A DNA stretch of 64,000 bases from an archaeon (lineage in GTDB: Archaea; Nanobdellota; Nanobdellia; Woesearchaeales; GW2011-AR15). Below the pieces are notes generated by a model that was given only the letters and a program-made list of their open reading frames with translations, searched no databases and was not told the origin of the DNA. Of the stretch, positions 26,282 to 64,000 are shown piece after piece (positions within the stretch are counted from its first letter, which is position 1; every line of letters begins with the position of its first letter). The stretch is from contig JAZDLQ010000017.1 of NCBI GenBank assembly GCA_043801855.1, positions 90,625 to 154,624 on the forward strand. Reading direction: 5' to 3'. The position numbers and the translations under genes were made by a program.

Positions 26282-26307
26282 CAAAAAAAAACTTATGCCT
26301 GTGAAAA

Positions 26308-26799: not shown

Positions 26800-26816
26800 G
26801 CTTTGTTAAGCCAGAT

Positions 26817-27941: not shown

Positions 27942-27949
27942 AGTTAAGC

Positions 27950-29367: not shown

Positions 29368-29370
29368 AAA

Positions 29371-31332: not shown

Positions 31333-31349
31333 TGAGGTGTTATTATAAA

Positions 31350-32568: not shown

Positions 32569-32574
32569 AGTAAA

Positions 32575-33937: not shown

Positions 33938-33953
33938 ATAGTCTTTAGTTATA

Positions 33954-34631: not shown

Positions 34632-35164
34632 ACATTAATCTTGAATCCGAATTAAAAGAAAAAAAAACTATTCTTGTTGTAATACCAAATGTCGAATACC
34701 AGGAGACAATATTAAGCTTATGCAGACAGCTTAATACCAACTATAACAGAATTGCCTATATTAGCCTGAATAAATTAATAACCCCTCTTCGCCGCACACT
34801 TGAAGATAATAAAATTAATACTGAAAAGTTCTTTTTTATTGACGGAATCACAAAAACAGCGATACCAAATCCGCCATCTTCATCTAATATTATCTATGTT
34901 CCAGCGCCAAATGACCTAACAAAACTTAGCATTGCAATAACAAAGGTTTTGCAGACATTTGACCCGGACTGCCTGTTTTTTGAGAGCATGTCAACACTTC
35001 TTATCTATGAAGAAGAAAAAGTCATCAGCCAATTCATGTATTCGGTTGTAAATAAAGTAAACGCATTTGGCATCCGCTGCATCTTAACATGCCTTGATGG
35101 CAGAAAAGAAGAGATATTAATAAATGACTTAAGCTTAGTACTTGATAAGATTGTGAAGAGATAG
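34628..35164 (+). CDS. Degenerate RecA/KaiC-fold protein lacking Walker A (DUF835/DUF7504-like)
   Basis: YISLNK, FFIDGI, LFFESMSTLLIY. Confidence 0.65.
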   Translation: MNINLESELKEKKTILVVIPNVEYQETILSLCRQLNTNYNRIAYISLNKLITPLRRTLEDNKINTEKFFFIDGITKTAIPNPPSSSNIIYVPAPNDLTKLSIAITKVLQTFDPDCLFFESMSTLLIYEEEKVISQFMYSVVNKVNAFGIRCILTCLDGRKEEILINDLSLVLDKIVKR

Positions 35165-44517: not shown

Positions 44518-47500
44518 ATGAATCAAAAAAATTATCTAATATTTTACTTGCTTTTTCTATTTATAAGTATATCCTTTGCTCATGCAAATAATAGTTTTTT
44601 TCAAACTGATAAAGAAAGCTATTTTGTAGGTGAAATTGTTCATATTAATATAACAGGAATAAGCGATAATTATGAACTTACAATACATGAAGCAGGGAAT
44701 GTTTATAAATTTCTTGGTGGAATCGGAAGTGTTGTTTCTTTCATACCTAAACAGATTGGAATTTACACAGTTGTTCTTACAAAGGCAGATACTGTTCTTC
44801 AAGAAACAAACTTTGTTGTCGTTGGTAAACCTGCAAAAGAAAATAAGACCGGGCAAATAATTTCTAATTATGTTGAATTGCTGCCTGCGCCAGTAAGTTT
44901 TAACCTATCTTCAGATAAAAAAGAATACTTGTTGGGAGAACCAGTATTTATTGATATTGATGGAGAAATAAGTGATGCTAGCTTATTGATAAAATCTGAT
45001 AAAAATTCTTATTCTTATGTTGGAAGGCTAATTTCACCAATAAAATTTATACCAAAAGACGCTGGCAATTATTCTGTGGTTCTTCTTGATAAAAATTCAA
45101 TTAGTCTGATGCAGATTAGTTTTATTGTTACAGACACTCTTTCGGCTTTGCCATCTGATGAACTGAATATTACTCCAATAAAGGAAAATATATCAGACAA
45201 TGCTTTGCAGGATAATTTTTCATTTAAGAATTTTATAGATATATCTGATATTCCTTCTCAAATGGCTGAAAATGATTTATTATACAATATGACAGATGCT
45301 GAGCAATTTCAGGAGGACAAGTATATTTATAATAAGTCCGTTTTTGTTGAATTAAGCCAGAAGAATTTTAATGTCAAGGATAGAAATGGTAATATTATTA
45401 GCACTACTATTAATTTCGAATCGCGATTTCTAAATAGGAGCTTTGGATTTACTGACAGGATTAACCCTGGAAAGTATTCTGTTGAAATGAATCTGGATAA
45501 TTCACTTGGAGCAAAAAGGATAAACCTTGAGGGCTTGAATTTTACAGGCAATTTTTCAATTATTCTAAGTGATGCAAAAGTAAAAAGCATCAATGGCAAA
45601 AAAGCGCTGGATTCAATAATTATTGACGGAAAAAATGAAGCTTTTGAATCTGGATATACAACTGTTGCTGCGAAAGGATCTCAAGTTTTGCAATGCACAA
45701 ATATAGATGAAGCATCAGGCTCATGTATTGGTGATTGGGAAAAAGTAAGAGACATCTGGCCAGGCATGGAGTATAAGCTTCCAGTTACAAATGCACCTGT
45801 TATTTATGCTGAGATTGGAGTTGCAGCAATCAATTCAATCAAGCCAATATATAAAGTAAATGAAACTGCAGAACTTTTGATTGCAGTTCTTGATATTGAC
45901 GGATATCCTGCAAATGCAGATATTACATTAACTATTACAAATCCGGCAGGCGCAGCGCAATCATTTACAAATGGATTCATTAATGAAAAAAAAGGGGTAT
46001 ATTCTTTTACATATTCTGATACATTTGAAGAAGGCGAATATCAGATTGAGGTTTTTGCAACAGGGCAAAATGTCAGGAGCAACTTAAGTTCAACATTTAC
46101 TATAAAAAACGATTATCCCTTTGATATATTTAGAGAAACACAGATATCAATCGATCCATTTAGCGGCCCAACAAGTTCAAAAATTAAAATAGTGTCAAAT
46201 AGTTATGAAGATTTTTTTACCTTAATTGAGTATGTGCCAAATGAGTTTGCAATAACAAATAATGGTGGCGCAATAATTACTAATGATAGCGATAAAACAA
46301 TACTTACATGGCACAATTTAATGAATAACAGTGCTGTTGAATATTCTTACCAGGCTCCGCTTACAACACCCTATCTTTATTATCTTGGGCAAGCAAGGAT
46401 AAATTATGGCAATTCTTTTTTTATAGAAGCAAGGCCATGGTATGTGGCAGCTGATCCGCAAAGTAAGTATGGGTATTTTGTCTACAAAGATACAACAAAT
46501 GCAGGATATGTTAAATATAGGGTTTGGAATAGCTCTGATAATACTGTTGGCGCTGAAGTAAGCGGAGCTAATATAGTTGGTGTTCCAGTATGGCAGAAAT
46601 TTGTGTGCCTTGAAAATAGGCCTGAGTGCCTTTTACTTTCAAAGTTTTCAAATACAAGCCTTTATTTTAGCATTTTTTACGAGAAAAATCTATCCTGGTC
46701 AGATCCGATTTTTTTATCAAACACTGACGATGATTATATCCAATTTGATATAGGGTGTGAGGGATTATCCGGAGACTGCCTCATCGCCTATGAGACATCA
46801 ACTGCCGGAAACAACCAGTTTGATTATAGGATTTATAATGGGACATCAGGTGTTTTATCTGGCGCAGCGACAATAACAGTCACTGCAGCAACTGCTAATG
46901 CATTTAGGTTCATCAATATGTATCCAAAATACAATTCCAACAATATCGCAATAGTCCTTCAAAACCAGCTTGGTACAGGCGGTGAATATGAAGCTGCGAT
47001 CTGGAATGGGACAGCATTTGACAAGTGGCAGGAATTATACAATGATAATCCTGATATAACAAGATCAACAAGCAGCTGCGCATGGGAAGGCGCAAGCGGA
47101 CAATTGATTTGCTTTTACGGAAGGGATGCAGCAGACGGAATGTGGGCATGGCAGTTTGACAGCTCGTCATGGAGTGATTTAGGAGAGGTATGGACTGCTC
47201 TAGACCTTGGCGCTGAAGCCTTTCAGATAGATACATGCGCAGAGACTCCGCAGACTGGTGATTTATCCCATGATTATATTGTAGTTATATCAGCTGACGG
47301 AGATTCAGATAGGGACGGAACTTATTGGAATGGTACGGCGCTTAGATATGACATTGCTCCTGCTCAGGATGGCTCAACAAACAGAGGCTTTGACTCTACT
47401 GCTGCCTGCAGTTGGGAGCATGACGGAAATTTAGCTGTTGTAGTGTGGGTTGACAGCGGCGCAATAATTCCTGAATGGGGAACTTTTGACTATGCATCCG

Positions 47501-50500
47501 GAACATTCAGCCACGCTAACTGGGCGACAGGCTCAACAATTGGGATGTCAAATTTTGTAAGAAGTGTTTTTTCAATAAAATTATCATTAAGTTCAGTAAG
47601 TGACCAGATGCTACTTATCGGCTCAAGCACAACTGGCGGAGCTGCAACTCCATCAATAGTTAATGCATCAAGATGGTCTGGCTCATCTTTTGATGGCACA
47701 GGAATAGTTACACTTGATACAACAGGTGCAACCGATACAACAGGAAACAGGGAATATTTTGGCTATACTGCAGTTGACTGGAGCAGGTTCATTGACTTAA
47801 ATACGCCAAATATTACTCTAATTAACCCAGGAAACGATTCTGTATCAAAAAACATTTCATATAACTTTACATGGAATGCAACTGATGACTGGGAACCAAG
47901 GCTTATATGCAATATTACTATTGATGATAGGGTAAATACAACTGACATAATATCTATTAATGGAAATTATTCAAATTTTTCAATAAATGATTTACAGCCA
48001 GGCGAGCATAATTGGAGCGTTAAGTGCACTGATGATTTTGGGTTTGGATTATCTGAAATGTTTAATTTTGTAGTTGCAGGCCTTCCTGATATTTATATTA
48101 ACTCAGTAGGCGGAGATACAACAGAAACTTTTTCTTTTTCTGATCAAACTCCAATAATAAATGCGCATATTCACCTGAATTCAACATGCTATTTGAGTAC
48201 TGTTGATGAAAGCTACGCTGACATGGTTTCAAATGGAAGAGTAAATTGCGGGTTTTACGAAAGAAACGTTGCAAAAGATTGCGAATACACAGAATCGCTA
48301 ACAATTGGCAATGGCAATTTGTATATGGCATGCAATTCAACATATGGTGATGAGCACACATCGTCTAACAACAAAAACATAGCAATAGATGTTCTTTGCG
48401 ATTCGCATGCAGATTGCTCCTTGACAAACCAATATTGCGATTATAATTTTGATTGTACATCAGATATTCTTCCTGGATTTAAATGTGCTAACCTTTCTTT
48501 TAATAATAATCCTGATGATGAAGTATGCGCAACTGGTGCTGGTGCCTCTGCAAAATGTGTAAGCGATGCATCTTTTAGTTTTACAGACTGGTATTGCACA
48601 TCAGATTCTGACGACTGCGTATATAATAATGGTGGTAATTCTTATGATTTAAATTATCGGCTTTGTATTCCGGCAACCAATAATTTCAGGCAATGCTCTG
48701 CAAATAATCTTTGGGGAAATATTAATTATTGTTTTAATCAGTATGATCCTGCTAATCAAAGCGCAACAGCATCAACACATGTTGGTTACAACTGCAGTTA
48801 TTACGCAGATTCACAGACCTGTTCAAGCGGTGACTTTGACCTTGGCAGCTACGGATGCAGCGGAGAGCCAACAGATTGTGGAAGCTATGTTTATGTTTCA
48901 GCAGGGTCATGTGGCAGCGCTCTAGCTGACTGCGATTTTGGCTGCGAAGCAGATTGCGATATTGATAATTCAACAATGCCAGCTATTGTTGATGATGTTT
49001 GCTATTACAATAAGGCATGCAGCGATGTATGCACTTGGTTGCAAAACGATGAAATTGCACCTCTTTTCTGCATAAATGATTATGATGGAGGAGAATGCGC
49101 TAATTTTGATCGCCAAAGGCCAACCTATAATGAAACGTGTTATTGGAGTCCAACATGCCATAATTCATTTGGGGCAAACATGACTCAGGAGGGAATATTA
49201 CGAGAAGACTATTGCGACTTTTGCAACGCAACCGGAAACCAGATTGGAGATTACTCACCTCTCCCGAATTCAAGTTGCCTTTCGTTTTGCCCGGACAGCG
49301 GCATCATCTATTATGATTCAGAAGGCACCCCTGCTGAAAGGAGGGACGACTGTGCTAATGGGACAACAAAAATATTTACAGATACTCTATCAATAGGAGA
49401 TATATGGGATGGCTCAAACCCTGCAATTTGCAACAATGCAGAGTGCGAGATTGACTGCGGAGAATACTTAAACGGAACATGCAATGTTGGTGTATGCAGC
49501 TGCTATGATACAGAGCCACCTTTTATTGAAATATCCTATCCGCAAAACAATACATGGCTAAATACAAATGTAGTTATTTTTGTATACAATGTTACAGATC
49601 TTGGAACAAACGTGTCCAACTGCTCGCTTGTAATTAACGGGACAGTGCGAAATGTAAGCACCGTTATTTTTGAAGGAGATTATATTAATTTTTCAAGGGA
49701 ATTTTCCAATGAGTCTTTAAGGTGGCACATTAACTGCTCTGATAATTCCAGTAACACAGCAATATCTGAAGAAAGGAATAATGGAGTTGACACAACTAAA
49801 CCCATTGTAATTAATGCATCAACACAAGGCTCAGTTTTTGATGTCAATGAGCAGATATGCCTAAACGTTACTGCAAACGATACTTTTTCAGGAATTGACG
49901 TGATTTATGCAAATATTTACAGGCCAGGCCAGGGTGAAGCTAATTTTACGCTTTACGATAATGCAGCAACATCTTGCGATCCAGTCATTGGAGATGGAAT
50001 ATATTCACTTGAATATAACCTGCAGTATGCTGGAAGGTATAACTGGACATATGCATTTGCAATTGATAATGCAGGCAATGAAAATTATCTGGCAGTTTCA
50101 TACTCATGGCTTACAAATGCAGGCGGCAACATGACAGTAAACATGACAAGACCAACTCAAAATATTGTGGTCAACGAATCTTTAAATGATATAAACCAAT
50201 CATACATCCAGTCGTGTAATGTAACTTGTTTATCCGGAGAAGAAAACTGCCGTATTGTGAATTTAAGCGTACAGTATGAAAAAGACAGCTCATGGATTGA
50301 TATTTCAAGAACAACTGAAGATTTTTTTGTTGATGAAAATAAATTCTCATGCGGCAATTTGACATCAGTAAATGCCTCTTGGTGGAATTCAGGATATTCT
50401 TATAGAAAGCCAATAATAATTTCGACAAGAGACTATATTCCAAAAAATTACACTATAAGCATAACTGAAGATACAACAGCAATCAGCGTGCTTGGGAGCG

Positions 50501-53500
50501 GGAATGATTACAGAATAGTATATTGGAACGGCACAGACAATATTGAAATAGACAGGATTAATGAATCAGCATGGCAATCAACCCAGACAGTAATAAGCTT
50601 TGGGCTTCAAGCACCGATTAATGCTTCATCTTTAAGCTATTCATATTATGCATATTACGGTAATTCGGGGGCAGGAACTCCACCCGCAAATGGATCAAAA
50701 GCCTATCTTTTTTATGATAATTTTGAGTCTTATTCAGTAGGTGGAAGCGCATCACCTAATTGGAATGCATTCGCTGGCACATGGAGTGTCCAAAGCGTTT
50801 CAGGAAACAAGGTATACAGAGGGTATACAACTGCGTATGGTGTGTCATACATAAATAATATACGTTTCACAAATGTTTCGATAACAATGCGCTATTATGT
50901 GTATAACAGTTCTCCATCAACAGGATTTTCCGGGTTATACACCAGAGTTGCAGATATGGCATCAACATGGAATACAGGCTCAACTTCAGGTTATCTGGTT
51001 TTCAAAAGAATGCAGGCAGCAAATGATGTAGAGATTTATCGGAAAGGCGGTGGAATAACAAATACTTTAAGTTCTGGCTATACGGGCTTACAGACATGGA
51101 TTACTTTCAGGCATGATGCTCTTGCAAACAATCTTGTGCAGTACTTAAATGGAGTAAGATATAACAATGTGACAGATGGCACTCCTTATTTATCAGGCTA
51201 TACATCTCTTCATCCTGCAAGAGTCACCGCTGATTATGATGATGTAAAAGTAAGAACTTTAGTTGCTAATGAACCTACTGTTACAATAGGTGCTGAATCA
51301 TACTATGGAATGAATAACACTTGCGCCCATAATTTTACTGTTTATGCAGGTGTTGATAAGGGAAATGCAAAATATCCAGTTAGATGCAGGGCAGTATCGC
51401 AAAACAGCGCAACACAATTATCAGATAGCTTTAATGTGACAATCAACAGGCATCCTTTTTCAATTATTGGGTATCCTGCTGATAACAGCTATGTTGGAAA
51501 AACAATAAACATAAGCGCACAGAATTCCTATGATATTGACGGGAGCATAGTTACCTATCTATATCAGTTGGATGATAATATTGTCTTCTCATCACCGCAA
51601 ACACTTTGCAGCACGCCAGATTCTAACTGCACATTTAATACACTATTGCAAAGCCAATGTAACAATAATACTATTTCATGCTTTCTTAGAGTATCAGTTT
51701 ATGACAATTACCTTTGGTTTGGAAACTCAACAGTAAGGATTGGCTTTGACACTCTTGGCCCTAATGTTACAATGACTGCACCAGCCAATTTTTCAAATTA
51801 TTCAGCTGATTTTATTGTGTCAGCAGAAGCAATCGATGGAGAATCATTGGTTGACAGTGTTTTTTTCGAATACAGGGAAAATGAAACTGAAGCCTGGAAA
51901 CTTATTGGAGTTGATGCAGAATTTCCTTACTCAATGCTTTTTGATATCTCATTACTTGAGGACAAAGACTCTTATGAGTTTCGCGCAGTTGCAAATGACA
52001 CATTTGGTACTCTTGGTAATTATGATATGCGCACAAATATTACAATTGATAGAAATGGTGCTTCAATTATTCTTCTACAGCCTCTAAACCAAAATTATTC
52101 AAAAGAACAGGATATGTCCCTTTATTTTTCAGCAACCGATACGCTTTCACAGATTAAGAATTGCACACTAATTTTTGACAGTTCAGTTAACCAGACATTA
52201 TTTTTTTCATCAAAATCAGTTTTATCTCAGTATTATGTGGATGATATTAGTGAGGGCGCCCACACATGGAAAGTTTCATGCTATGATTCTCTTGGCAATT
52301 ACAATGAATCTTTAGAAAAGGTACTTACAATCGATACAACAGGGCCAATTGCAGTGCTTGATATGCCTCCTGATTTTGAAAACCTTACTGGAACTTATAC
52401 AATAAACGCAACAGCTACCGATGCAGGAATTGGAGTCAATGCAACAGTTTTTGAATACCGCAAGGATTCACTCGACACATGGCATATAATATGCGAAGAT
52501 TATTCTGCTCCCTATGGATGCAACTGGAATACTGCATTGCTTGATGAATCCGATACATACGAGGTTCGTGCTTATGCAAATGATTCTCTTGGAAATATTG
52601 GCAGTTATAGTACTCATGCAAATATGAAAGTAGACAGAAGCGGCCCGGCAATTATCTTAGAGCAGCCATCTGATAACAGCATTGACGGTGATGGAGATGT
52701 CATCTTTATCTTTCAGGCAAACGATTCATTATCAGAACTTGCCAGCTGCTCATTATACATTAATAATATTCTTAACCAGACAATTAGCACAGGGTTATTG
52801 GAAGAATCAACATTACAATTTAGTGTAGAAAACATGACTAATGGGGATTATTTCTGGAATATAACCTGCAGCGATAATTTTGATAATAGCCATAATTCAA
52901 ATTGGTCAACGACTAAAAAAGTTACAATTGACATTAAGTTTATCATGAATGCATCTGTCATAACTGATAAGTCATCTTATGGTATAGGAAATCAGGAATC
53001 TGATTTTGCAAAATTTACTGCAAATATTACTGACTATTATGGGCAATCGCTTGATGCAGGATACAAACTAGATATCTTCAAAGGCAACGGAACAATGCCT
53101 TGGTGGAATTTATCATGGCAAAAAAGAGTCCCAATTTTTATATCTGAAACTCTTGGAAAAAACAGGGTCAATGAGACAATTTTTGTAAATCTCACTGGCC
53201 TTGCAAATAACATTTCGGATTGCGCAAAAGAGATAAGGATAATTGATTCAGATACGTTTGAGGAAGTGCCGATAAATGTTACAGGAGGAAATAACAGGAC
53301 ATATTGTGATGTTATCTTCAAGGGAAGCGTTAGCGCTAATGCTGTTACTGAAAACAGGTATTATGCTTATTATAATTATACTCTAGCTACAGCAAAAACT
53401 TATTCGTTAAGCTATGTCCTATATCCTTATCCTGTACAATATGACAGTTTTGAAGATGGCTCAGGAACTAATTTTGTGCTGTCAAACACCACTTGCGTTA

Positions 53501-55440
53501 TAACTGGGGCAGCTGAATGCGTTGACTCAAGTCCGTGGGATGGATTTGATGAGTGTATTGAGGGAGAAGCAGCGACAGCTTACGGCGTGTGCTCTTCTCA
53601 ATATGGGGCAATTGTCGGCGCAAGAGCATTGCATGCAAGAGGCGGTCTTGACAGGGAAACTGACAACAGAGATGGGCTGTATAGAATGATTAATTCTACA
53701 CCTTGCGGAGGTAAATCATGCGCAATGCTTAACATCAGCTATTATCAAGTTGTGTATTCTATGGATACAGCAACAGAAGGAAGCGCTGTATTTGTAAACG
53801 ATTCAGACGCAACACTAAGGCTACTATCACAATGCATGGATGCAACAGGATGCGAAGCAGGCTCGTTTGCAGCAATGGCAACTTCTGCTCAATATTTTGG
53901 CGCAGATATATGCGCTGTTGCTGGCATTAGCTGCCTTGAAACAATAACAGTTAGGTTCACTTCAAGAAATGTCAGGACACACACAACTAATGATTATTTC
54001 GGGTGGGATGAAATAAATATTACTGGTTATAATGAAATTACTTCAGGAGTTGTTGCAACTAATGGCGACACAGATATTTGGATAAATAGGACTGTATCAA
54101 ATACAAATTCATCAGGCTATGATGATTATATCTTTTGGCTTAATAACCTACAGCTAGGAAATTATACTGCAGCAATTCTTTCTTCAAAAGTGTTGTTCAC
54201 TAATGATACAGGATATAAATATTTTGAAGTGCGTCATGATTTTATAGGCCCAAACGTTACATTGCTATATCCGAGAAATGGAACTGAAATAAACAGCTCA
54301 GTTATTTTTCAATACATGGTTAATGATTCGCTAAGCACAGTTTCTAATTGCTCTTTGTATATAGATGGCAATTATATTGAGACTGATACTTCAATACAGG
54401 AAGATGATACACAGTTTCTCTATCCGATACTTCCTCAGGGAGGCTGGCACAACTGGAGCGTAAGATGCGCTGATTATTATAATAACATAGGCATAAGTGA
54501 AGTGAACTGGATTTTTGTCAGGCCTCCTGATTTTTATGTTCAGCAATCAAGCATCATGTTTAATATCTCAAATCCAATTGAAGGCAAAAACATTACGATA
54601 AATGCAACTATATTTAATCTTGGCGGAAGCTATGGTTATAATGTAACTGTTCAGTTCTGGCATGGAAATCCTAATACTACCGGAGAAAAAATAAATGGAA
54701 ATATCACAATTCCGCTGCTTACAGATGTCAATGGAAACCAATCAAATATTACTGTGAATATGACTTACATATTAAGGTCAGGTGGCTCTCATGACTTTTA
54801 TGTTTTTGCAGACCCAAATGTAAGCATCGGCGGAAATGTTTTAGAGTCAAATGAGACAAATAATTTTGCGTATGCAACCATGTTTGTCAGCGGCTGGCAC
54901 ACATATTTTGGGAATTTTTCTTCACTTGTTGTTCTGGATACATCTGACAATAAAACACAGATTTCATGGAATGCAACACAGTCTGCAAACATTTTTGTAA
55001 CCGAAACAGGATCAAGCATTGAATGGCAGGCTCTTCAGGCTTTGGGGCGGGACATTTCTAATATGGTATCATTTAATGATTTTTATGACCTTGATATTGT
55101 GCTTAATATGACTCTCTTTAATGACTCGATAAATAAGAGTTTCACAATAAATCAGGCACCAAAAAAACTGGAATCTTATTATGTTTATAATACTTATATA
55201 CCAAATGTTCCGGTAATTAATTCTTCTAATACAACTACCTTTCAGACGGGTATTCTATGGGATACTAGCGATGGAAATTTTGATTATAATGGAACCCAGG
55301 ATGTTGTTTTTACGACAAATACGTCATCAGCAAAAGAGGGAAAATACGGCATATATGATTATGAGATTGCGGTGCCTGCGTCGCTTAAAAACTACAGGTA
55401 TGGGGCAGGAAGAGTCACATTTTATATTGAGATAGTATAA
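44518..55440 (+). CDS. Giant (3640 aa) secreted multidomain adhesin-like protein
   Basis: Signal peptide; Ig-like repeats (W.V.C.D..GN), Cys-rich block, two DUF2341-like segments (WWN...R.PI.I), CARDB-like domain, C-terminal domain shared with 58736 and 59721. Confidence 0.8.
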   Translation: MNQKNYLIFYLLFLFISISFAHANNSFFQTDKESYFVGEIVHINITGISDNYELTIHEAGNVYKFLGGIGSVVSFIPKQIGIYTVVLTKADTVLQETNFVVVGKPAKENKTGQIISNYVELLPAPVSFNLSSDKKEYLLGEPVFIDIDGEISDASLLIKSDKNSYSYVGRLISPIKFIPKDAGNYSVVLLDKNSISLMQISFIVTDTLSALPSDELNITPIKENISDNALQDNFSFKNFIDISDIPSQMAENDLLYNMTDAEQFQEDKYIYNKSVFVELSQKNFNVKDRNGNIISTTINFESRFLNRSFGFTDRINPGKYSVEMNLDNSLGAKRINLEGLNFTGNFSIILSDAKVKSINGKKALDSIIIDGKNEAFESGYTTVAAKGSQVLQCTNIDEASGSCIGDWEKVRDIWPGMEYKLPVTNAPVIYAEIGVAAINSIKPIYKVNETAELLIAVLDIDGYPANADITLTITNPAGAAQSFTNGFINEKKGVYSFTYSDTFEEGEYQIEVFATGQNVRSNLSSTFTIKNDYPFDIFRETQISIDPFSGPTSSKIKIVSNSYEDFFTLIEYVPNEFAITNNGGAIITNDSDKTILTWHNLMNNSAVEYSYQAPLTTPYLYYLGQARINYGNSFFIEARPWYVAADPQSKYGYFVYKDTTNAGYVKYRVWNSSDNTVGAEVSGANIVGVPVWQKFVCLENRPECLLLSKFSNTSLYFSIFYEKNLSWSDPIFLSNTDDDYIQFDIGCEGLSGDCLIAYETSTAGNNQFDYRIYNGTSGVLSGAATITVTAATANAFRFINMYPKYNSNNIAIVLQNQLGTGGEYEAAIWNGTAFDKWQELYNDNPDITRSTSSCAWEGASGQLICFYGRDAADGMWAWQFDSSSWSDLGEVWTALDLGAEAFQIDTCAETPQTGDLSHDYIVVISADGDSDRDGTYWNGTALRYDIAPAQDGSTNRGFDSTAACSWEHDGNLAVVVWVDSGAIIPEWGTFDYASGTFSHANWATGSTIGMSNFVRSVFSIKLSLSSVSDQMLLIGSSTTGGAATPSIVNASRWSGSSFDGTGIVTLDTTGATDTTGNREYFGYTAVDWSRFIDLNTPNITLINPGNDSVSKNISYNFTWNATDDWEPRLICNITIDDRVNTTDIISINGNYSNFSINDLQPGEHNWSVKCTDDFGFGLSEMFNFVVAGLPDIYINSVGGDTTETFSFSDQTPIINAHIHLNSTCYLSTVDESYADMVSNGRVNCGFYERNVAKDCEYTESLTIGNGNLYMACNSTYGDEHTSSNNKNIAIDVLCDSHADCSLTNQYCDYNFDCTSDILPGFKCANLSFNNNPDDEVCATGAGASAKCVSDASFSFTDWYCTSDSDDCVYNNGGNSYDLNYRLCIPATNNFRQCSANNLWGNINYCFNQYDPANQSATASTHVGYNCSYYADSQTCSSGDFDLGSYGCSGEPTDCGSYVYVSAGSCGSALADCDFGCEADCDIDNSTMPAIVDDVCYYNKACSDVCTWLQNDEIAPLFCINDYDGGECANFDRQRPTYNETCYWSPTCHNSFGANMTQEGILREDYCDFCNATGNQIGDYSPLPNSSCLSFCPDSGIIYYDSEGTPAERRDDCANGTTKIFTDTLSIGDIWDGSNPAICNNAECEIDCGEYLNGTCNVGVCSCYDTEPPFIEISYPQNNTWLNTNVVIFVYNVTDLGTNVSNCSLVINGTVRNVSTVIFEGDYINFSREFSNESLRWHINCSDNSSNTAISEERNNGVDTTKPIVINASTQGSVFDVNEQICLNVTANDTFSGIDVIYANIYRPGQGEANFTLYDNAATSCDPVIGDGIYSLEYNLQYAGRYNWTYAFAIDNAGNENYLAVSYSWLTNAGGNMTVNMTRPTQNIVVNESLNDINQSYIQSCNVTCLSGEENCRIVNLSVQYEKDSSWIDISRTTEDFFVDENKFSCGNLTSVNASWWNSGYSYRKPIIISTRDYIPKNYTISITEDTTAISVLGSGNDYRIVYWNGTDNIEIDRINESAWQSTQTVISFGLQAPINASSLSYSYYAYYGNSGAGTPPANGSKAYLFYDNFESYSVGGSASPNWNAFAGTWSVQSVSGNKVYRGYTTAYGVSYINNIRFTNVSITMRYYVYNSSPSTGFSGLYTRVADMASTWNTGSTSGYLVFKRMQAANDVEIYRKGGGITNTLSSGYTGLQTWITFRHDALANNLVQYLNGVRYNNVTDGTPYLSGYTSLHPARVTADYDDVKVRTLVANEPTVTIGAESYYGMNNTCAHNFTVYAGVDKGNAKYPVRCRAVSQNSATQLSDSFNVTINRHPFSIIGYPADNSYVGKTINISAQNSYDIDGSIVTYLYQLDDNIVFSSPQTLCSTPDSNCTFNTLLQSQCNNNTISCFLRVSVYDNYLWFGNSTVRIGFDTLGPNVTMTAPANFSNYSADFIVSAEAIDGESLVDSVFFEYRENETEAWKLIGVDAEFPYSMLFDISLLEDKDSYEFRAVANDTFGTLGNYDMRTNITIDRNGASIILLQPLNQNYSKEQDMSLYFSATDTLSQIKNCTLIFDSSVNQTLFFSSKSVLSQYYVDDISEGAHTWKVSCYDSLGNYNESLEKVLTIDTTGPIAVLDMPPDFENLTGTYTINATATDAGIGVNATVFEYRKDSLDTWHIICEDYSAPYGCNWNTALLDESDTYEVRAYANDSLGNIGSYSTHANMKVDRSGPAIILEQPSDNSIDGDGDVIFIFQANDSLSELASCSLYINNILNQTISTGLLEESTLQFSVENMTNGDYFWNITCSDNFDNSHNSNWSTTKKVTIDIKFIMNASVITDKSSYGIGNQESDFAKFTANITDYYGQSLDAGYKLDIFKGNGTMPWWNLSWQKRVPIFISETLGKNRVNETIFVNLTGLANNISDCAKEIRIIDSDTFEEVPINVTGGNNRTYCDVIFKGSVSANAVTENRYYAYYNYTLATAKTYSLSYVLYPYPVQYDSFEDGSGTNFVLSNTTCVITGAAECVDSSPWDGFDECIEGEAATAYGVCSSQYGAIVGARALHARGGLDRETDNRDGLYRMINSTPCGGKSCAMLNISYYQVVYSMDTATEGSAVFVNDSDATLRLLSQCMDATGCEAGSFAAMATSAQYFGADICAVAGISCLETITVRFTSRNVRTHTTNDYFGWDEINITGYNEITSGVVATNGDTDIWINRTVSNTNSSGYDDYIFWLNNLQLGNYTAAILSSKVLFTNDTGYKYFEVRHDFIGPNVTLLYPRNGTEINSSVIFQYMVNDSLSTVSNCSLYIDGNYIETDTSIQEDDTQFLYPILPQGGWHNWSVRCADYYNNIGISEVNWIFVRPPDFYVQQSSIMFNISNPIEGKNITINATIFNLGGSYGYNVTVQFWHGNPNTTGEKINGNITIPLLTDVNGNQSNITVNMTYILRSGGSHDFYVFADPNVSIGGNVLESNETNNFAYATMFVSGWHTYFGNFSSLVVLDTSDNKTQISWNATQSANIFVTETGSSIEWQALQALGRDISNMVSFNDFYDLDIVLNMTLFNDSINKSFTINQAPKKLESYYVYNTYIPNVPVINSSNTTTFQTGILWDTSDGNFDYNGTQDVVFTTNTSSAKEGKYGIYDYEIAVPASLKNYRYGAGRVTFYIEIV

Positions 55441-55543
55441 GAAATTAATAAGAAAATAGTTGCTTATTTTTTTATTTGCTAAGTTTGTACTATTTTCTTT
55501 TACACGGAACGATATCTTACATCCTGACTTCGCAGTGGCGAAG

Positions 55544-56300
55544 TCAGGTTTTAGCTATTCTTTCTCTTACAACCAACACCAGCAGAATCAGAATTATTAT
55601 TGCAGCGGCGATAATTACGTAATAAAAATTATGATCAAATATATAGCTGAAAAGACTGATATTTTCGAATATTCTTTTTTTTGACACTATTGTTTTATAT
55701 TTTGTTATTTGCTTTTGCTCTGTTAAGTTGGAATATATTTTTTTTTCAATGCATTGTTCGTACTCAGGCGCAGAGATTGTGGCAAGAGCCCAATAAGTTG
55801 CGCTTCTATTTTTCTTGTCAGTCTGGGCAGATATTATTTTTGATTCTCCTGGGCCAAACACTTCTCCAATAAATTTAGATTCCATATCAGCCATTTCCCT
55901 TGACAATTCATCTTTAAAATCATCGTACTCCCTGCCGTAATATCTCTCGTGTGGGTGTGTTTCATTATTGAAAAAATAGAACTTGAAGTTAAATACGCCA
56001 TACCTGTTTTCCTGGTTCTGTATATATATTCTTGGCGTTGAATACCTTCCATCATTTGAAATTGCCCTCCATTCACGAAAATAATCAAATGTCTTATTCT
56101 GGCAGATGACAACATCTTTCTCAAAAGTTGTTGTTACGTTCTCAATGCTTGTATAAGGGATTTCTTCAACAACAGTTTTATCAGTTGGCAATTTTAAGTA
56201 TATATTTTGCAGCAGAAATATAAAAAAAATTATAAATATAGCGAATAGAAGCAGGACAAGGGCCCGTGTTTTTTTTTTTTTGCTCTTTGTATTTTTTCAT
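55544..56300 (-). pseudogene. Two-TM membrane protein frameshifted in an A13 tract
   Basis: ATG 56300 frame stops early; with A12 it reads MKKYKEQKKKTRALVLLLFAIFIIFFIFLLQNIYLKL into the 215-aa ORF. Confidence 0.75.
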
Positions 56301-56370
56301 TTAACGCTAATAACTAATATAAATAGGCTAAAAGAGCAGCAGAGATATTATATTTATTATTATTTTTTCT

Positions 56371-56934
56371 CTACCACTTAACCCCATAATTCATTATAGG
56401 GACATTATTAAGGTAAGTGTTTTGCGTTTTTGCACCGTTAAGTATCTTTAAGAAATTCTCGTAATCGTTTACTCCTACAAAATAGATCTGGTCTTTTGTG
56501 GTTTCTAATATCAGCATGTTTGAATATAATGCTGATGCAAAAAATAAAGTGTAGGATAGGTCTTTTTTAATCCTTTTCCACCTCATGTAGCTTTTTGGGT
56601 TCCATGAGCTAAGGATATTTATCCTTTTTATGTTATGCCAGCCAAACATCTCATAATGCTTGCCTGTTTCAGGAGCCCACTTAATGACTATCCCGTTCTG
56701 GTTAAAGTAAAGCCATCTGTTTCTCTCATTAAGGAGCTGCATTAACAAAAATAAAAAAAGGGTTAAGTTAATAGTGTAAAATCCTGTGATATAATATTTT
56801 ACCACGTTGAATCTCCAAAAAGCCAGCGGTATGAGGGGCGTTAAAACCAAGAGAAACATAGTTGAAGTTATTATAAACGTATTAATAAAAGAAAGGCCGC
56901 AATCTTTCCAAAGGACTTTTTGGCTCTCCATCAT
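56371..56934 (-). CDS. Membrane protein, two TMs plus PH-like beta domain
   Basis: Two hydrophobic helices, then LYFNQNGIVI..W.NIKRI. Confidence 0.55.
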   Translation of the reverse strand: MMESQKVLWKDCGLSFINTFIITSTMFLLVLTPLIPLAFWRFNVVKYYITGFYTINLTLFLFLLMQLLNERNRWLYFNQNGIVIKWAPETGKHYEMFGWHNIKRINILSSWNPKSYMRWKRIKKDLSYTLFFASALYSNMLILETTKDQIYFVGVNDYENFLKILNGAKTQNTYLNNVPIMNYGVKW

Positions 56935-57041
56935 TAATTTTATAGGGCTTCTCTTTATATAATTTACTCTCTATTACACAGCAAAAGGCAATTACAAAAA
57001 TATTTAAATACTTCCTTTTTATAGTTCATATTGAGGGGACA

Positions 57042-58166
57042 ATGGGACTGTTAAAAAATGTATACCTGGATTTTGGCTTTTTAAATCCTCTTAATCTTGT
57101 AAAAAAAAAGAAGAAGAGTACTGTTGAAAATGAGAATGTTGTACCAGTAGGCTTGTATTCAAGCAGCATTTCTCCTGGCAATAGTTATCTTAATAACTCA
57201 ATTTCTGAAGCTTCAGGAGAGGCAATAGGCGGCTCGGGCAGCATAGGATACAATTTGCCAAATATTCCAAAAAAGCTTGTTGAGAAAAGTGAGTCAATTT
57301 CTCCTCCTGCAAAGATTCCAAGAGAGCTTCCTAAGCTTTCTTACGGCAATACTAAAAAAAGCATAATTATTGAAAAAAATATTGCTAAGCCTGATTCTTT
57401 ATCTTCAATAAGCTCTACAGAGATACCTGGCGCTCCTATTGCGGATGCAAATTTTTCTATTAGCGAAACAAGCAAGCAAAGCTCAATAACACAGGAAACG
57501 CAGGGCATAATTGAAAAACAGCCTGAAAAAAAATTTAACATACAGCCGTCCGTCGCAACTGACAGTTTTTCTGCGGATATGCACAGCGACTCAACATTTT
57601 TTAACTCGCTTTTATCATCGATGGAAAAAGAAAAAGCAATACTTTACAGCAGCGGGTCGAAAGATATTTTGATGAAAGATGTTTTTTCTGAAGTAAAGGC
57701 ATTTTGGGGCAATAAGCATTATTCATACAAGCAGGAAATTGCAGCCAAAATTGCAGAAGATGAGCTTTCTTCAAGGATAAGAGAGCTGCACGATCTTGAG
57801 CTTGATTGGCAAAAAAGCCAGCTTATGCACGAGCGGCTTAAGGATGATGTTCATAAAAAGGAAATTGCAATAAATGCAAAAATCGCCCAGCTTAAATGCC
57901 TTTTTTTCAAGTATCACAGTGAGACGAATGTGGCTCCGCAGTTCTTCTTTATTTTAAGCAATGGCAGTAAAATTAGAAATCTTCTCGAGTTAAAAAATAT
58001 GCTTCATCATCTGCCTGATGATATATTTAGATATCATGTCAATAACAAAAAAAACGACTTCTCGTCTTGGATTAACGATGTGATTGGCCTTGATGAGCTT
58101 GCGTCTGAGCTTCGATATGCACGTGAAAAAGAAACCTTTATAAAAATTATTGACTCTTATTTTTAA
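57042..58166 (+). CDS. Coiled-coil protein with C-terminal DUF5752-like domain
   Basis: FILSNG..IRNLLEL...FRYHVNNKKNDFSSWINDV; GAGGGG RBS. Confidence 0.7.
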   Translation: MGLLKNVYLDFGFLNPLNLVKKKKKSTVENENVVPVGLYSSSISPGNSYLNNSISEASGEAIGGSGSIGYNLPNIPKKLVEKSESISPPAKIPRELPKLSYGNTKKSIIIEKNIAKPDSLSSISSTEIPGAPIADANFSISETSKQSSITQETQGIIEKQPEKKFNIQPSVATDSFSADMHSDSTFFNSLLSSMEKEKAILYSSGSKDILMKDVFSEVKAFWGNKHYSYKQEIAAKIAEDELSSRIRELHDLELDWQKSQLMHERLKDDVHKKEIAINAKIAQLKCLFFKYHSETNVAPQFFFILSNGSKIRNLLELKNMLHHLPDDIFRYHVNNKKNDFSSWINDVIGLDELASELRYAREKETFIKIIDSYF

Positions 58167-58345
58167 CATACATGAAATCTTTACAATTTTATTTATAAAT
58201 ATATTTTTTTTGTATTATAATTCGGTTATTTTTATGTTATTTTTTTAAAATTAATCTAAATTATTCTTATTTTAATTTAATACATCTTTTTTATTCTTAT
58301 TTTCTTATTTTAGGTTTAAATAATATCTTTATTTTTTCAATCTAA

Positions 58346-58442
58346 TCGATACATTTATATATAACTTAGTATACATATATGTATACCAAGATACAATATA
58401 TAAAATATTGTATATTAAAATACAAAAAAAGATATTTTGTAT
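58346..58442 (+). promoter_or_regulatory. TATA promoter followed by three ATACA...TGTAT palindromes
   Basis: tttatatata near 58354; perfect 18-bp palindrome 58369-58386; ATACA-N13-TGTAT at 58391 and 58420. Confidence 0.6.
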
Positions 58443-58536
58443 ATTAACATACGAAACAAGCAAGTAAGTTAGGGAAAAGTGAATTAATTTCCAAATAAAT
58501 AAGCAAATTACGCAAGTGCGCGAGGTAGATGAAAGA

Positions 58537-58743
58537 ATGTCAAGCTCTGCTGACTGGGTAAAGCTGGTTTTCAATGAAACACCAGCAAAAGCAATTGTAA
58601 AGCAGGGATTCCTCTTTGATGAGGGTGATTTCTATCGTGTTGTCGGAGATTCTTCTGAAACACTTGTTCGCAAAATGACTGTCATTAGCATTACTAAAAA
58701 AAAAGCAAATAATGATACTATAAGAGGTGAAAAAAATGAATAA
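58537..58743 (+). CDS. Small beta-rich protein, possibly Sm/LSm-like fold
   Basis: WVKLVF..QGFLFDEGDFYRVV..TLVRKMTVISI; GAGGT upstream. Confidence 0.45.
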   Translation: MSSSADWVKLVFNETPAKAIVKQGFLFDEGDFYRVVGDSSETLVRKMTVISITKKKANNDTIRGEKNE

Positions 58744-59515
58744 GATGTACAAAACACTATTTTTAGCACTTATTTGTGCTATTGCTGCATTAAATGTTGT
58801 TTATGCAGCAGACGATGATATTCCAACACCATTGGAATCACTGATAGTAACAGAAAATGAAAGAATGAACATGACGCAATTTACTGCGGCAACTGAAACT
58901 GCAGAAGCTGGAAACGTGACACGCCTATCGCTTTATTCGCGATCACAGACCAAGCACTGGCAGGGCTATTATGGCGAGATAACAGGTACAATCACACTTG
59001 ATGATGCTCAGAACTGGACAATGTATGATTGGAACAACCAGGAACCAAAAGGCGAGATATATGCAACTTGCAACACATCTGGAATAACTCCTGACTGGGC
59101 AACAGTTGAATGCTTTGATTTTGAAACAAACCTTCGCCAATGGGAAATATTTTACAATATGACAACAGATGGTAGAGATAATATAAATAACACTTTTAAT
59201 ATGACTGACCACCCAAGCTTTGGTGTCGGAAGATATACTATTGCTGAAGATGCATGCCAATCAACATTTACTTATGTGAATGATTCATGGCAGGAGCAGG
59301 AATTCAGGGAAGTTTTGCTTCAGGCAGATGGAAACGAGCTTATCTATATGACAATAATCGAGCAGAATGACTGGAACAACGATACAGATCCAAATGGATT
59401 TGATAACGCTGCGCATGATTTCCAGCTGATTGTTGCTGAAGACGGCTCAAGCTATGATGAAGGTGAAGTCAACCAGAATCCTACTGTATATTATTTTTAT
59501 GTGGATCTGGAATAA
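58736..59515 (+). CDS. Secreted beta-rich subunit A (putative filament subunit)
   Basis: Signal peptide; WQGYYGEITG..L.D....MYDW; C-terminal YYFYVDLE. Confidence 0.65.
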   Translation: MNKMYKTLFLALICAIAALNVVYAADDDIPTPLESLIVTENERMNMTQFTAATETAEAGNVTRLSLYSRSQTKHWQGYYGEITGTITLDDAQNWTMYDWNNQEPKGEIYATCNTSGITPDWATVECFDFETNLRQWEIFYNMTTDGRDNINNTFNMTDHPSFGVGRYTIAEDACQSTFTYVNDSWQEQEFREVLLQADGNELIYMTIIEQNDWNNDTDPNGFDNAAHDFQLIVAEDGSSYDEGEVNQNPTVYYFYVDLE

Positions 59516-59532
59516 ACAAGCTTTATTCATTG

Positions 59533-59570
59533 CCGAAGAAATATCTTCGGTTTTCACCTCTTTTATTTTC
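59533..59570 (+). terminator. Hairpin plus T-rich tract after subunit A
   Basis: ccgaaga-aata-tcttcgg followed by tttt and ttttatttt. Confidence 0.6.
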
Positions 59571-59720
59571 CTAAAAAAGGAAAAAACAGTATAAAAAAAT
59601 AACAAAAAAACCAAAGACAATCATAATCCTAAAAACAAATAATCCTGATAATCACAATTAGCGTTACAAACAATAACATAATCCAAAAACAATTCAAACA
59701 AAACATTTGAGAAAAAACAA

Positions 59721-60470
59721 ATGAAACTTGCACCAACAAAAATAAACATGTATGCCATTCTTGCAATGGTTGTCTGCTTCGCTGCAATAATTAGCGCAGT
59801 TATGGCAGTTGAGCCTGAAGGTGCATCCATTACCTATATTTCAAATTCAACAAAAAACGCTACAGCACCAAGCTCAAGAAATGACAGCAAAGGAACAATA
59901 ACTACTCTAACTTTGTCTGCAATCCAGCAAAATTACAAATGGAAAGCCTATGTCGGAAATGTAACAGGTACTCTTGTTTTGCAGGATTCATCGTCATATA
60001 GCATTTATGAATGGACAGCGCTTTCTAATCCATCTGGTATGATTTACATTACTAGGGACAATTCGATAACCTGGCCTCAGGTAAAATGTGCCAATCAGAC
60101 AACAATAGCACTCGAACAAGAAAATTTAAACCATTCTGTAACTGCATCAGACAATATTAATCACACTTTTTCATATACAGCCCATCAGTCTTTTTATGTA
60201 GGAGACGTACACATTGATAATAGCACTTGCAAAAGTGTTGCCACATGGATAAATAACTCACTTCAATCTGTTAATGAAGATTCAAATTTCCAGGAAATAC
60301 TGCTGCAGGATGACAGTAATTTAGTCTATGCAGCAGTAGTTGAGCAGAATTCATTCAGCTATAGGAATGACAACTCTACTTATGATTTCCAGGCACTAGT
60401 TGCAGACAGCGCATTGCCAGGCGTTACAGGCCAATCAACATATTATTTTTACATCGAGATATCAGCATAA
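59721..60470 (+). CDS. Secreted beta-rich subunit B (paralogue of A)
   Basis: Signal peptide; WKAYVGNVTG..L.D....IYEW; C-terminal YYFYIEISA. Confidence 0.65.
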   Translation: MKLAPTKINMYAILAMVVCFAAIISAVMAVEPEGASITYISNSTKNATAPSSRNDSKGTITTLTLSAIQQNYKWKAYVGNVTGTLVLQDSSSYSIYEWTALSNPSGMIYITRDNSITWPQVKCANQTTIALEQENLNHSVTASDNINHTFSYTAHQSFYVGDVHIDNSTCKSVATWINNSLQSVNEDSNFQEILLQDDSNLVYAAVVEQNSFSYRNDNSTYDFQALVADSALPGVTGQSTYYFYIEISA

Positions 60471-60480
60471 GGCAAGCAAA

Positions 60481-61425
60481 ATGAACCAGAATATTAGATT
60501 GCAAAAAAAGAACTTGCTTTCGGCAGGTCTTGCCATAGCCATATTTTCGCTTGCGCTATGGATATTGGTGCTTGAGGCGCCAACGCTTAGCCAGGGATAT
60601 CTCGGAGCTGCTGTAAACCAGTCATTAAATACAACTGTAAATATAACAAACGCAGCTCCTGAAGTTAGGAGTGCAGTATTGGATTCAAGCATTTTCCTTG
60701 AAGCATATGGTGAAGTAGCAGTAAATTGTACCGCAGTTGTCTTTGACTGGGATAATGATACTTTAACAGTTAATGCATCCCTATATCTTAATGGAAGAGC
60801 CATGCCTGATGGCACCCTTGATAATAATACATTATATAAAAATACATCATGCACAAGAATGACAGAGCAGGATAGGACAATGAACTACACCTGTGCATTC
60901 CCTGTCCAGTATTATGCTGATAACTCAACAAACTGGAGATGCAATGTAACTGCTGAAGATGATGAAAGGGCATATAACAGCAATATATCAAACGCTGGCA
61001 ATATTAACGCACTTGTTGCAATATATGTTCCTGGCGTATTAAATTTTGGAGAACTAGCTGTAAATGATATTTCAGAAGATAAGCTTGCAAATATTACAAA
61101 CGCCGGAAACAGAAACATAAGCATTGCAGCTGAAGGCTGGGGTGCAGTAAAAGGCGACGGCCTTGCTATGAACTGTTCATATGGAAGTATTGCAGTAGGA
61201 TATGAAAGATATAACTTAACAACAGGAAGATTATGGGATACTCAGATGGTCCAGTTGACAAACCAGTCTTTATCCATAAACGGCCTGCGGGTTTTCCATA
61301 GGTTTGCTGATACTGAAATTGCAACATCAACAAATACAACCTACTGGAAGCTTAAAATCCCTGCTCTCGCAGGCGGAATATGCACTGGTAAAATCCTATT
61401 TACTGCTTCAGACAGCGGCTCATAA
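60481..61425 (+). CDS. Secreted/anchored two-domain beta-sandwich protein
   Basis: N-terminal hydrophobic helix; LNFGEL..NITNAGNRNISI; C-terminal CTGKILFTA. Confidence 0.6.
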   Translation: MNQNIRLQKKNLLSAGLAIAIFSLALWILVLEAPTLSQGYLGAAVNQSLNTTVNITNAAPEVRSAVLDSSIFLEAYGEVAVNCTAVVFDWDNDTLTVNASLYLNGRAMPDGTLDNNTLYKNTSCTRMTEQDRTMNYTCAFPVQYYADNSTNWRCNVTAEDDERAYNSNISNAGNINALVAIYVPGVLNFGELAVNDISEDKLANITNAGNRNISIAAEGWGAVKGDGLAMNCSYGSIAVGYERYNLTTGRLWDTQMVQLTNQSLSINGLRVFHRFADTEIATSTNTTYWKLKIPALAGGICTGKILFTASDSGS

Positions 61426-63813: not shown

Positions 63814-64000
63814 TCAAATCTCCTTCCCGCACTTCTTGCATCGCTTTGCCCGTAGATTATTGATTTCCTTGCAGTCAGGGCACTTCTTTTTCATACCAAG
63901 TATAAGCAGCAATAGTATTAATATAATTAAAACAGGTGCATAAGTCAATGCAAGGCTACCAGCATCAGATAATGCGCTGCCTAAGTCAAATCCTGCTTCC
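63814..64000 (-). CDS. C-terminal end of a membrane protein with a zinc ribbon (runs off the window)
   Basis: Reverse strand reads ...APVLIILILLLLILGMKKKCPDCKEINNLRAKRCKKCGKEI*. Confidence 0.7.
   Translation of the reverse strand, partial: EAGFDLGSALSDAGSLALTYAPVLIILILLLLILGMKKKCPDCKEINNLRAKRCKKCGKEI

Follow-up and report, generated by a model that had tools for sequence, protein, structure and literature searches.

Archaeal filaments that lie outside the type IV family, are complemented by donor strands and need no chaperone are described, in the cited portions of the respective reports, as the threads of Sulfolobus acidocaldarius and the cannulae of Pyrodictium (PMC9715654; bioRxiv 10.1101/2024.12.30.630787). 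In TasA and AbpA, as presented in the cited parts of PMC9245690, PMC9674648 and PMC10151520, an N-terminal strand enters the neighbouring subunit, and glycosylation is found on or near the donor strand. For the tafi of Haloarcula hispanica and the Sec-type DUF1102 clusters of Thermococcus and Archaeoglobus, the relevant sections of PMC11821415 propose N-terminal donor-strand assembly free of chaperone and usher, and TapA, AbpB and TafC are proposed there and in the corresponding part of PMC9245690 to cap or start the chain. We analysed a 64,000-nucleotide stretch of a woesearchaeal genome (the window in what follows; positions 90,625 to 154,624 of contig JAZDLQ010000017.1, assembly GCA_043801855.1), whose forward strand encodes a secreted surface protein of 3640 amino acids, a putative adhesin that we call the giant (44518..55440), two small secreted proteins, subunits A (58736..59515) and B (59721..60470), and a third secreted protein, p341 (60481..61425, alternative start 60400). 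All four open reading frames lie where an earlier note on this DNA had placed them. The cluster to which they belong is a real, conserved and undescribed surface-structure locus, and that its small proteins polymerise is a well-motivated inference. We favour, with moderate confidence, a Sec-dependent surface fibre outside the type IV family, in which subunits donate strands to one another and giant adhesins act as acceptors only, a structure reminiscent both of the TasA, Abp and tafi filaments and of chaperone-usher pili while being a member of neither group.

A and B are paralogues, identical at 84 of 258 positions (33%, E 3e-36). The C-terminal 199 residues of the giant align with B over 195 columns reaching both ends (26%, E 9e-4) and with the first half of A over 100 residues (24%, E 7e-6). 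A profile of 44 family members (alignment A1) matched this single giant C-terminus with a probability of 96.2% (E 2.4e-9, 163 columns; hhalign) and a profile of 25 giant C-termini from the source genome and related loci (alignment A2) with a probability of 98.4% (E 5.2e-15, 164 columns), and separate profiles of the subunit classes A, B and C (see below) each match all 25 giant C-termini, with medians of 29.0, 21.6 and 18.9 bits, A being the best. Judged from these alignments, the homology of A, B and the giant C-terminus is far beyond chance. The earlier note had aligned the last ~180 residues of the giant with A and B by eye and had named profile comparison as the check on a shared domain; the relationship that it proposed is borne out, and significant similarity is what the profiles returned. 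The part of B that can be aligned to the giants is confined to residues ~70-249. Nothing in the giants corresponds, in the profile alignment, to the extension that precedes the core in the small proteins, and the core of the giants directly follows a CARDB domain; in the giant of the window this family domain, the core alone, occupies 54889..55437 on the forward strand.

Stand-alone members of the family consist of a Sec-type signal peptide, an extension of ~45 residues and a beta-rich core, which starts at an invariant tryptophan (W74 in B) and whose last strand, rich in aromatic residues, lies right at the C-terminus. B, a protein of 249 amino acids with the motif W-K-A-Y-V-G-N, comprises a signal peptide (residues 1-28), the extension as the candidate donor strand region (residues 29-73; 59805..59939, forward strand) and the core (residues 74-249), and the same succession is found in A, which bears the A-type motif W-Q-G-Y-Y-G. 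Conservation of the extension is seen at P32, G34, G58 and Q70, each retained by at least 90% of the 44 sequences, and in a motif resembling a strand, G-x-[IVF]-T-x-[LI]-x-[LI], which all three classes have 8-16 residues ahead of the tryptophan. The signal peptides, read from the translations and the alignment, have A-x-A-like cleavage sites. Pilin_N and archaellin matches are absent from A, B and p341, and among the 44 members one has a Pilin_N match at E 0.15, in agreement with the earlier note's statement that A, B and the giant show no class III prepilin motif; its statement that they carry no C-terminal membrane anchor likewise holds, a hydrophobicity scan having found no hydrophobic C-terminal segment in A, B, p341 or the giant. 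N-x-S/T sequons occur at 3.3-5.3 per 100 residues in A, B, C, p341 and both giants of the source genome (9 in A, 149 or 4.1 per 100 residues in the 3640-residue giant, 350 in the second giant introduced below), as opposed to at most ~1.2 in cytoplasmic neighbours. This density is an extracellular glycoprotein signature, from which N-glycosylation is predicted.

The family domain of the giants is terminal wherever it could be placed. It closes 23 of 23 large open reading frames of related loci, and among 1.84 billion representative proteins 839 match it at E<=0.001 and 684 at E<=1e-30; in the 150 matches listed of the 839, which span 218-6414 amino acids, it ends without exception no more than 4 residues from the C-terminus, the short proteins among these 150 being probably truncated by contig ends. 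The remainder of the 3640-residue giant matches Big_7 in three stretches (E 6.7e-25), CARDB at residues 3337-3450, Big_13 and, weakly, MG2. A signal-peptide-like N-terminal stretch is visible in it, and no hydrophobic 19-mer exceeds the threshold of the scan. Just upstream of the window, which lies on the contig that we designate G000:C18, a second giant of 8659 amino acids (G000:C18:63969-89948) carries the same terminal domain after CARDB. The gene that follows it encodes a protein of 1448 amino acids reaching into the start of the window (window 1-3657), with a hydrophobic, signal-peptide-like N-terminus, Ig-like (immunoglobulin-like) repeats, a glycine-rich linker, a hydrophobic stretch near the C-terminus that reads by eye as a membrane helix, and a charge-rich C-terminal tail.

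How the two forms of the domain might meet was addressed with a model of the giant core (residues 33-215 of window:54793-55437, with alignment A2) and two copies of mature B (residues 29-249, with alignment A1). The model reaches an interface score (ipSAE) of 0.66, with runs between 0.65 and 0.69, as against 0.00 for the best of three controls; 116 of 157 solved complexes and 2 of 215 mismatched pairs attain this mark, a calibration that is only rough for a three-chain model built from alignments of our own. The runs share at least 93% of contacts, and the predicted local distance difference test (pLDDT) of the partner is at least 87. B contributes residues 43-46, 50-55 and 57-71 of its extension and core patches at 74-78, 142-149, 173-181 and 214-234; on the giant, the contacts fall in strands one to three (34-63), at residues 132-134 and 185-199 and in the final strand (206-214; numbering of window:54793-55437). 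The passing model cannot simply reproduce a known structure, since no related complex has been solved. As a prediction, it supports binding between the giant domain and B.

The fold of the core points to no described relative. The AlphaFold2 monomer of B has a pLDDT of 84.2 and a predicted template modelling (TM) score of 0.74; its extension is irregular (pLDDT 55-75), and its core lies mostly at 85-97, with ~75-80 at three points. Searched with Foldseek against the PDB as a whole, extension included, the model gave no fold match (best E 0.31), and AbpA, whose likeness the earlier note had suggested checking in this way, came out only at rank 14 (7ueg_A, E 1.2, TM 0.10-0.13). There was no match in BFVD (best E 0.034), and in the ESM Atlas the model retrieved clusters of its own family, the best TM score outside it being 0.24. 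The fold may be new, or may be a known sandwich left incomplete. Sequence searches were equally silent: hmmscan assigned A, B and p341 to 0 Pfam families, at E<=1 not a single Pfam family recurs in two or more of the 44 members, and no PDB chain matches the family profile, or p341, at E<=1.

The family lies almost wholly within one order and is patchily distributed. A collection of 5.8 billion proteins yielded 124 relatives of B, 156-272 amino acids long and all annotated as 'hypothetical'; where the organism is named, they come from metagenome-assembled genomes of Woesearchaeota or Nanoarchaeota. In an even sample of the phylum, the family profile matches 107 of 401 genomes and 72 of 281 genera (a count that takes in the source genome and one unpublished genome, G243), nearly all of them within the window's own order. 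Six of eight genomes of the window's own family are positive, and the proportion ranges from 4 of 42 in one family to 10 of 11 in another. The source genome (2.25 Mb in 111 contigs, 88.8% complete) holds six stand-alone copies beside the two giants, and in many relatives the copies reach the scoring cap and so number at least six. A word search for longer, fused relatives of B returned 0 among 1683 candidates, which is weak evidence; fused forms were recovered by profile search instead. Within the family, adjacent pairs on the same strand have the A motif followed by the B motif in 69 of 78 cases and the reverse in one, and a tree of 203 members contains a clade uniting B and C (73 of 76 B, 43 of 43 C, 0 A), with class C, the copy after the helix-turn-helix (HTH) gene, in a clade of its own that takes in 42 of 43 C members. 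Three old paralogue classes, kept across the whole order, are thus recognisable in the tree and the gene order. One family copy of the source genome, on contig C105 (L084, 6087-7344), is directly preceded by a gene for a 184-residue protein of the phage integrase family (Pfam E 1.3e-13), a neighbourhood that may be mobile or invertible.

Gene order ties these proteins to a recurrent set of neighbours. When each species is represented by a single genome, a relative is encoded in 346 stretches, and 72 of these loci were fetched; many end early at contig ends, so that all counts of components are lower bounds. The recurrent order is giant, p712, giant, p374, (68-residue open reading frame), A, B, p341, HTH178, C, a signal-peptidase-like gene and, further on, p111, p594, p226 and p863, and additional modules occur in which an ArsR-type regulator is followed by A, B and p341. 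By blastp, matches were found to p341 in 45 of the 72 loci, to HTH178 in 43, to p863 in 41, to p374 in 34, to p594 in 28, to the giants in 26-28, to p226 in 23, to p712 in 18 and to the peptidase-like gene in 12. Modules with two or three subunit genes and no giant within the fetched 10 kb also exist, for example L021, L024, L037 and L040. The earlier note had suggested that p341 may be a base or adaptor. It is not a membrane base: its N-terminal hydrophobic stretch looks like a cleavable signal peptide in the homologues, of which 44 have signal-peptide-like N-termini, and an N-terminal strand motif, N-x-T-V-N-I-T-N-x-x-P-E-V, is conserved; the model of p341 (pLDDT 91.5) consists of two Ig-like sandwiches, and its structural neighbours are generic tandem-Ig proteins. 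p341 is unrelated to the subunit family. This secreted protein is a candidate for an initiator, a cap or an accessory adhesin.

For the signal-peptidase-like protein (G000:C18:156943-157446), the match to archaeal signal peptidase I is weak (E 2.7e-5), and that to SipW has an E of 8e-4. Two archaeal-type signal peptidase I genes in other parts of the genome score 78 and 44 bits where this one scores 20.8; from these scores it is an extra, divergent signal peptidase I paralogue. Pfam scans of the window and downstream proteins detected no type IV ATPase, platform protein, chaperone or usher, and the five T2SSE ATPase genes of the genome lie on other contigs (C29, C36, C72, C93 and C53), which sustains the earlier description of the cluster as non-type-IV. 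Two genes nearby were considered as parts of the system and rejected. The KaiC-type ATPase (38522-40936) has matches in 33 loci that are weak (<=94 bits) and mostly due to DUF5752-like repeats, and the MutS-like gene (61523-63268) recurs in one of the 72 loci.

Against this background the closest parallels can be defined more precisely. The likeness to the tafi and DUF1102 clusters, as far as these are covered in the cited sections of PMC11821415, lies in a single cluster combining two or three small subunit paralogues, a secreted two-domain protein of ~300 residues and a dedicated signal peptidase I, and in the differentiation of subunits into tip, adapter, major and anchor roles. It is the gene set, here with two or three subunit paralogues, a two-domain secreted protein of ~310 residues and an extra signal peptidase I, that suggests the parallel with tafi and TasA, and the tafi-type likeness is one of organisation only (p341 in 45 and the peptidase-like gene in 12 of the 72 loci). 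DUF1102 (PF06510) has no match in hmmscans of A, B and p341, nor among the 44 members at E<=1; a search of the whole source genome was equally negative, but its control was also silent, which makes it uninformative. DUF5305, the family of TafG, is without a match among the cluster proteins scanned. According to the same sections, the tafi differ in that their subunits measure 150-200 residues, compared with ~250 here, and are exported by Tat rather than Sec, and in that the first donor strand comes from TafC, their tip protein, whereas the giants described here carry the core without any.

With the TasA-TapA-SipW system of Bacillus subtilis and with AbpA/AbpB, as outlined in the cited part of PMC9245690, the locus has in common Sec-exported subunits, cleavage by signal peptidase I and an adjacent accessory beta-sandwich gene, the bacterial operon likewise having a dedicated SipW-type peptidase. 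Family membership does not follow: the TasA family Peptidase_M73 (PF12389) was not among the matches of A and B, nor of any of the 44 members at E<=1, and it has 0 matches in the source genome, the control being positive in B. subtilis. The locus differs further, in terms of the published descriptions cited, in having three co-conserved subunit classes instead of one, and giants with a subunit core, which have no counterpart there. The earlier suggestion of strand complementation in the manner of TasA or archaeal bundling pili survives in part. The conserved extension, its absence from the giants and its docking on the giant domain in the model speak for complementation, while membership in the TasA/Abp family is not supported.

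The giants recall instead the adhesins of chaperone-usher type 1 and P pili, where the C-terminal domain of FimH and PapG is, in the relevant section of PMC11821415, subunit-like, lacks an N-terminal extension, accepts that of the next subunit and occupies one end only. The profile alignment, the terminal position in the 150 listed proteins and the complex model assign this architecture to the giants as an analogy of logic, not as homology. The two systems differ, however: the organism is an archaeon without an outer membrane, the adhesin part comprises 3400-8400 residues instead of one lectin domain, the proteins of the cluster that were scanned, in the window and downstream of it, include no PapD-like chaperone or usher, and the fold and structure searches run on the B model showed no likeness of the core to Ig-like pilins. 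From the threads and cannulae the family is set apart, as far as the cited portions of those reports reach, by the lack of any PDB-chain sequence match and of any fold match. We found no literature linking Woesearchae* with 'donor strand' (main texts searched), the cited parts of the tafi and AbpA papers (PMC11821415, PMC9245690) make no mention of DPANN or Woesearchaeota, and the words giant, adhesin, pili and S-layer are absent from the main text of a 2026 Nanobdellota genome preprint.

We propose the following mechanism for the assembly of the fibre. The stand-alone subunits A, B and C would be exported by Sec and cut by signal peptidase I, possibly by the divergent extra peptidase of the cluster, and cleavage would expose the conserved extension of ~45 residues ahead of the beta-rich core. 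The extension of one subunit could then come to lie against the core of the next, at its first and last strands, by strand donation or beta-sheet augmentation, giving rise to a polar head-to-tail chain. The giants, with a core and no extension, would be able to accept a strand and unable to give one, and would be confined to one end of the chain, like FimH; that position would fix an adhesin of several thousand residues to the fibre. p341, with its conserved N-terminal strand and no family core, would be a donor only, provided that its strand fits the same site, and might cap or start the other end, and A, B and C may hold distinct places in the chain (adapter, major and variant). The parts of this scheme that we infer are the repetition of the contact from subunit to subunit, a filament rather than a sheet, what p341 does, how the fibre is anchored to the cell and which target the adhesin has.

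A broader claim may also be put forward, tentatively and with less conviction than the fibre itself. It would hold that Woesearchaeota possess an undescribed adhesive fibre whose subunit fold is unlike any solved or catalogued, which is assembled by N-terminal strand donation without chaperone, usher or ATPase, and which holds proteins of 2000-8600 residues through an acceptor-only C-terminal domain, so that archaea would have arrived at the FimH principle by convergence; the fibre would serve these uncultivated and mostly symbiotic archaea as a long-sought organelle of attachment to partners or surfaces, possibly, in this unusually large genome, under the control of the chemosensory and KaiC-like genes directly upstream.

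Several observations weigh against the fibre. No membrane anchor for it was identified in the source genome. In two other genomes, large proteins encoded on the reverse strand (L029:1435-5706, 1423 amino acids; L051:7459-11202, 1247 amino acids) have near the N-terminus a family domain that includes a donor-like strand, and then a transmembrane helix at about residue 590 and a long cytoplasmic tail, by which they are candidate anchors of the structure there; no equivalent was found in the source genome, where the single-pass membrane proteins p594, p712 and p863 are candidates for the role. No chaperone, usher or assembly ATPase was found conserved beside the subunits in the gene order of the 72 loci. 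In the complex model the second copy of B touches the giant at residues 58 and 60 only, and the contacts reported are those between B and the giant alone, so that a docking pair of one to one is as compatible with the model as a polymer would be. The giant was, moreover, cut at the boundary of CARDB and core, and the predicted docking site could in part be an artefact of this cut if the last CARDB strand packs against the core in cis.

What else, then, could these proteins form? They might build a two-dimensional coat, an S-layer-like or sheath lattice into which the giants are plugged through their C-terminal lattice domain, with the extension as an arm between subunits. The several co-conserved paralogues per genome (six stand-alone copies in the source genome), the dense glycosylation sequons and the missing membrane anchor of the subunits would all suit such a coat, and the contact between domains that the model supports leaves the geometry of repetition free. 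We nevertheless regard a coat as unlikely. A basic wall component would hardly be distributed as patchily as this family, even if divergent copies and incomplete genomes could hide some members, and the presence of a regulator in each module (HTH178 or the ArsR-type protein) is in keeping with a structure that is accessory and regulated; linear strand-donation polymers, besides, show just this pattern of one long N-terminal arm and one acceptor site per domain.

The docking pair just mentioned would do without any polymer: the family domain would be a docking module resembling cohesin and dockerin, and the small proteins would bind the giant C-terminus one to one, tethering or chaperoning the giants. 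That the model supports the pair of giant and B alone, with the second B at just two residues of the giant, and that giants adjoin A-B pairs in many loci, speaks for this; yet the stand-alone subunits possess both an extension and an acceptor core and could in principle bind each other, many modules have two or three subunit genes and no giant in the fetched 10 kb, three subunit classes have been retained over the whole order, and the small proteins have no membrane anchor by which to tether anything. We give this explanation somewhat less credence again than the coat. Finally, the shared domain could be a ligand-binding module, for glycans for example, and the predicted contact an artefact between paralogous domains. 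Beta-rich secreted domains are often lectins, and neither Pfam, PDB-sequence nor fold searches assign a known fold or function. A spurious contact is difficult to reconcile with controls of 0.00 beside a model at 0.66, and a ligand-binding role leaves unexplained the strict C-terminal position in the 150 listed proteins, the confinement of the extension to stand-alone forms and the fixed order of A, B and p341, which makes it the most improbable of the explanations considered.

Around the genes for the proposed fibre, the details of the cluster are as follows. p712 (42377..44515, forward strand), without a match to any Pfam or NCBIfam family, has a signal peptide, an ectodomain of Ig-like and cysteine-rich repeats, one transmembrane helix (residues 549-567, from sequence and the hydrophobicity scan) and a cytoplasmic tail; it lies between two giants in L011, L013, L016 and L018, four of the loci counted above for its relatives (18 of 72). 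Its ectodomain and that of p863 (G000:C18:160421-163012) have cysteine-rich repeats in common (motif N-Q-x-E-T-D-[IV]-D-C-G-G), followed in both by membrane helices and cytoplasmic tails. p374 (57042..58166, forward strand), usually the gene preceding the A-B pair, encodes a cytoplasmic protein in which the scan found no hydrophobic segment; its C-terminus is DUF5752-like by a weak Pfam match below the cut-off (E 0.002). Between p374 and A, an open reading frame of 68 residues (58537..58743, forward strand), missed by the earlier note, has no signal peptide and no Pfam family; tblastn gave 17 matches in 15 of the 72 loci, at 47-82% identity, each immediately 5' of an A-type gene. Its 3' end overlaps the start of gene A by 8 nucleotides, an overlap that suggests translational coupling. 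A would have 262 residues if counted from GTG 58727, and ATG 58736 is the likely start, preceded at 7 nucleotides by GAGGTG, the strong ribosome-binding site with which the earlier note had credited it. The terminator that it had also assigned to A is visible as a hairpin with a U-rich run (59532..59570, forward strand, from sequence and fold), but a simple terminator consensus scan did not pick it up. At the other end the window cuts p594 on the reverse strand (63814..64000; full gene G000:C18:154438-156222), which has a signal peptide, a large ectodomain, a C-terminal transmembrane helix and a cytoplasmic zinc ribbon, and whose family matches are all below threshold.

A DUF5752-like module with the motif N-D-F-x-x-W-[IV] recurs in four proteins of the 40-kb region: in three copies, counted by eye, in the N-terminal half of the KaiC-type ATPase of 804 residues (38522-40936), at the C-terminus of p374, at the cytoplasmic C-terminus of p863 and in an open reading frame of 110 residues (G000:C18:164630-164962, Pfam E 2.3e-7). 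The module may connect those parts of the cluster that are cytoplasmic with those in the membrane. Upstream of the ATPase, positions 22401-35164 of the window hold a complete archaeal-type chemotaxis operon with two Cache/HAMP methyl-accepting chemotaxis proteins, CheW, two CheY, CheB, CheA, three CheC/CheX-like proteins, CheD and CheR, and with a translationally coupled KaiC-like DUF7504 gene (34628-35164) as its last member; the operon runs straight into the region of the KaiC-type ATPase and the giant adhesin. Archaellin (PF01917) has no match in the source genome at its 88.8% completeness. Elsewhere the window encodes the large and small subunits of a [NiFe] hydrogenase with HypB, HypD, HypE, HypF, the protease HycI and NikR (12761-21484 and 3587-5857), and restriction-modification genes (6138-12340) for an Eco57I/N6 methylase, a BsuBI/PstI-type endonuclease and a C5 cytosine methylase. 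The lineage is known for reduced genomes, among which this one is unusually large and metabolically equipped, at 2.25 Mb compared with 0.6-2.1 Mb in sampled relatives.

Woesearchaeota are abundant and uncultivated DPANN archaea, and the locus is a concrete candidate for the means by which they attach to their partners. Roughly one in four of the genomes sampled from the phylum encode its secreted glycoproteins of ~250 residues, hundreds of giants (839 representative clusters) carry the matching C-terminal module, and the accessory genes form a fixed set. The C-terminal domain provides a practical marker for adhesins of this kind in metagenomes. If strand donation holds true, the subunits would represent a structurally new family among the few non-type-IV filaments of archaea, and the giants would be the first archaeal adhesins joined to a fibre through a subunit-like acceptor domain, which would explain how giant surface proteins of DPANN archaea are retained on the cell without a membrane anchor of their own.

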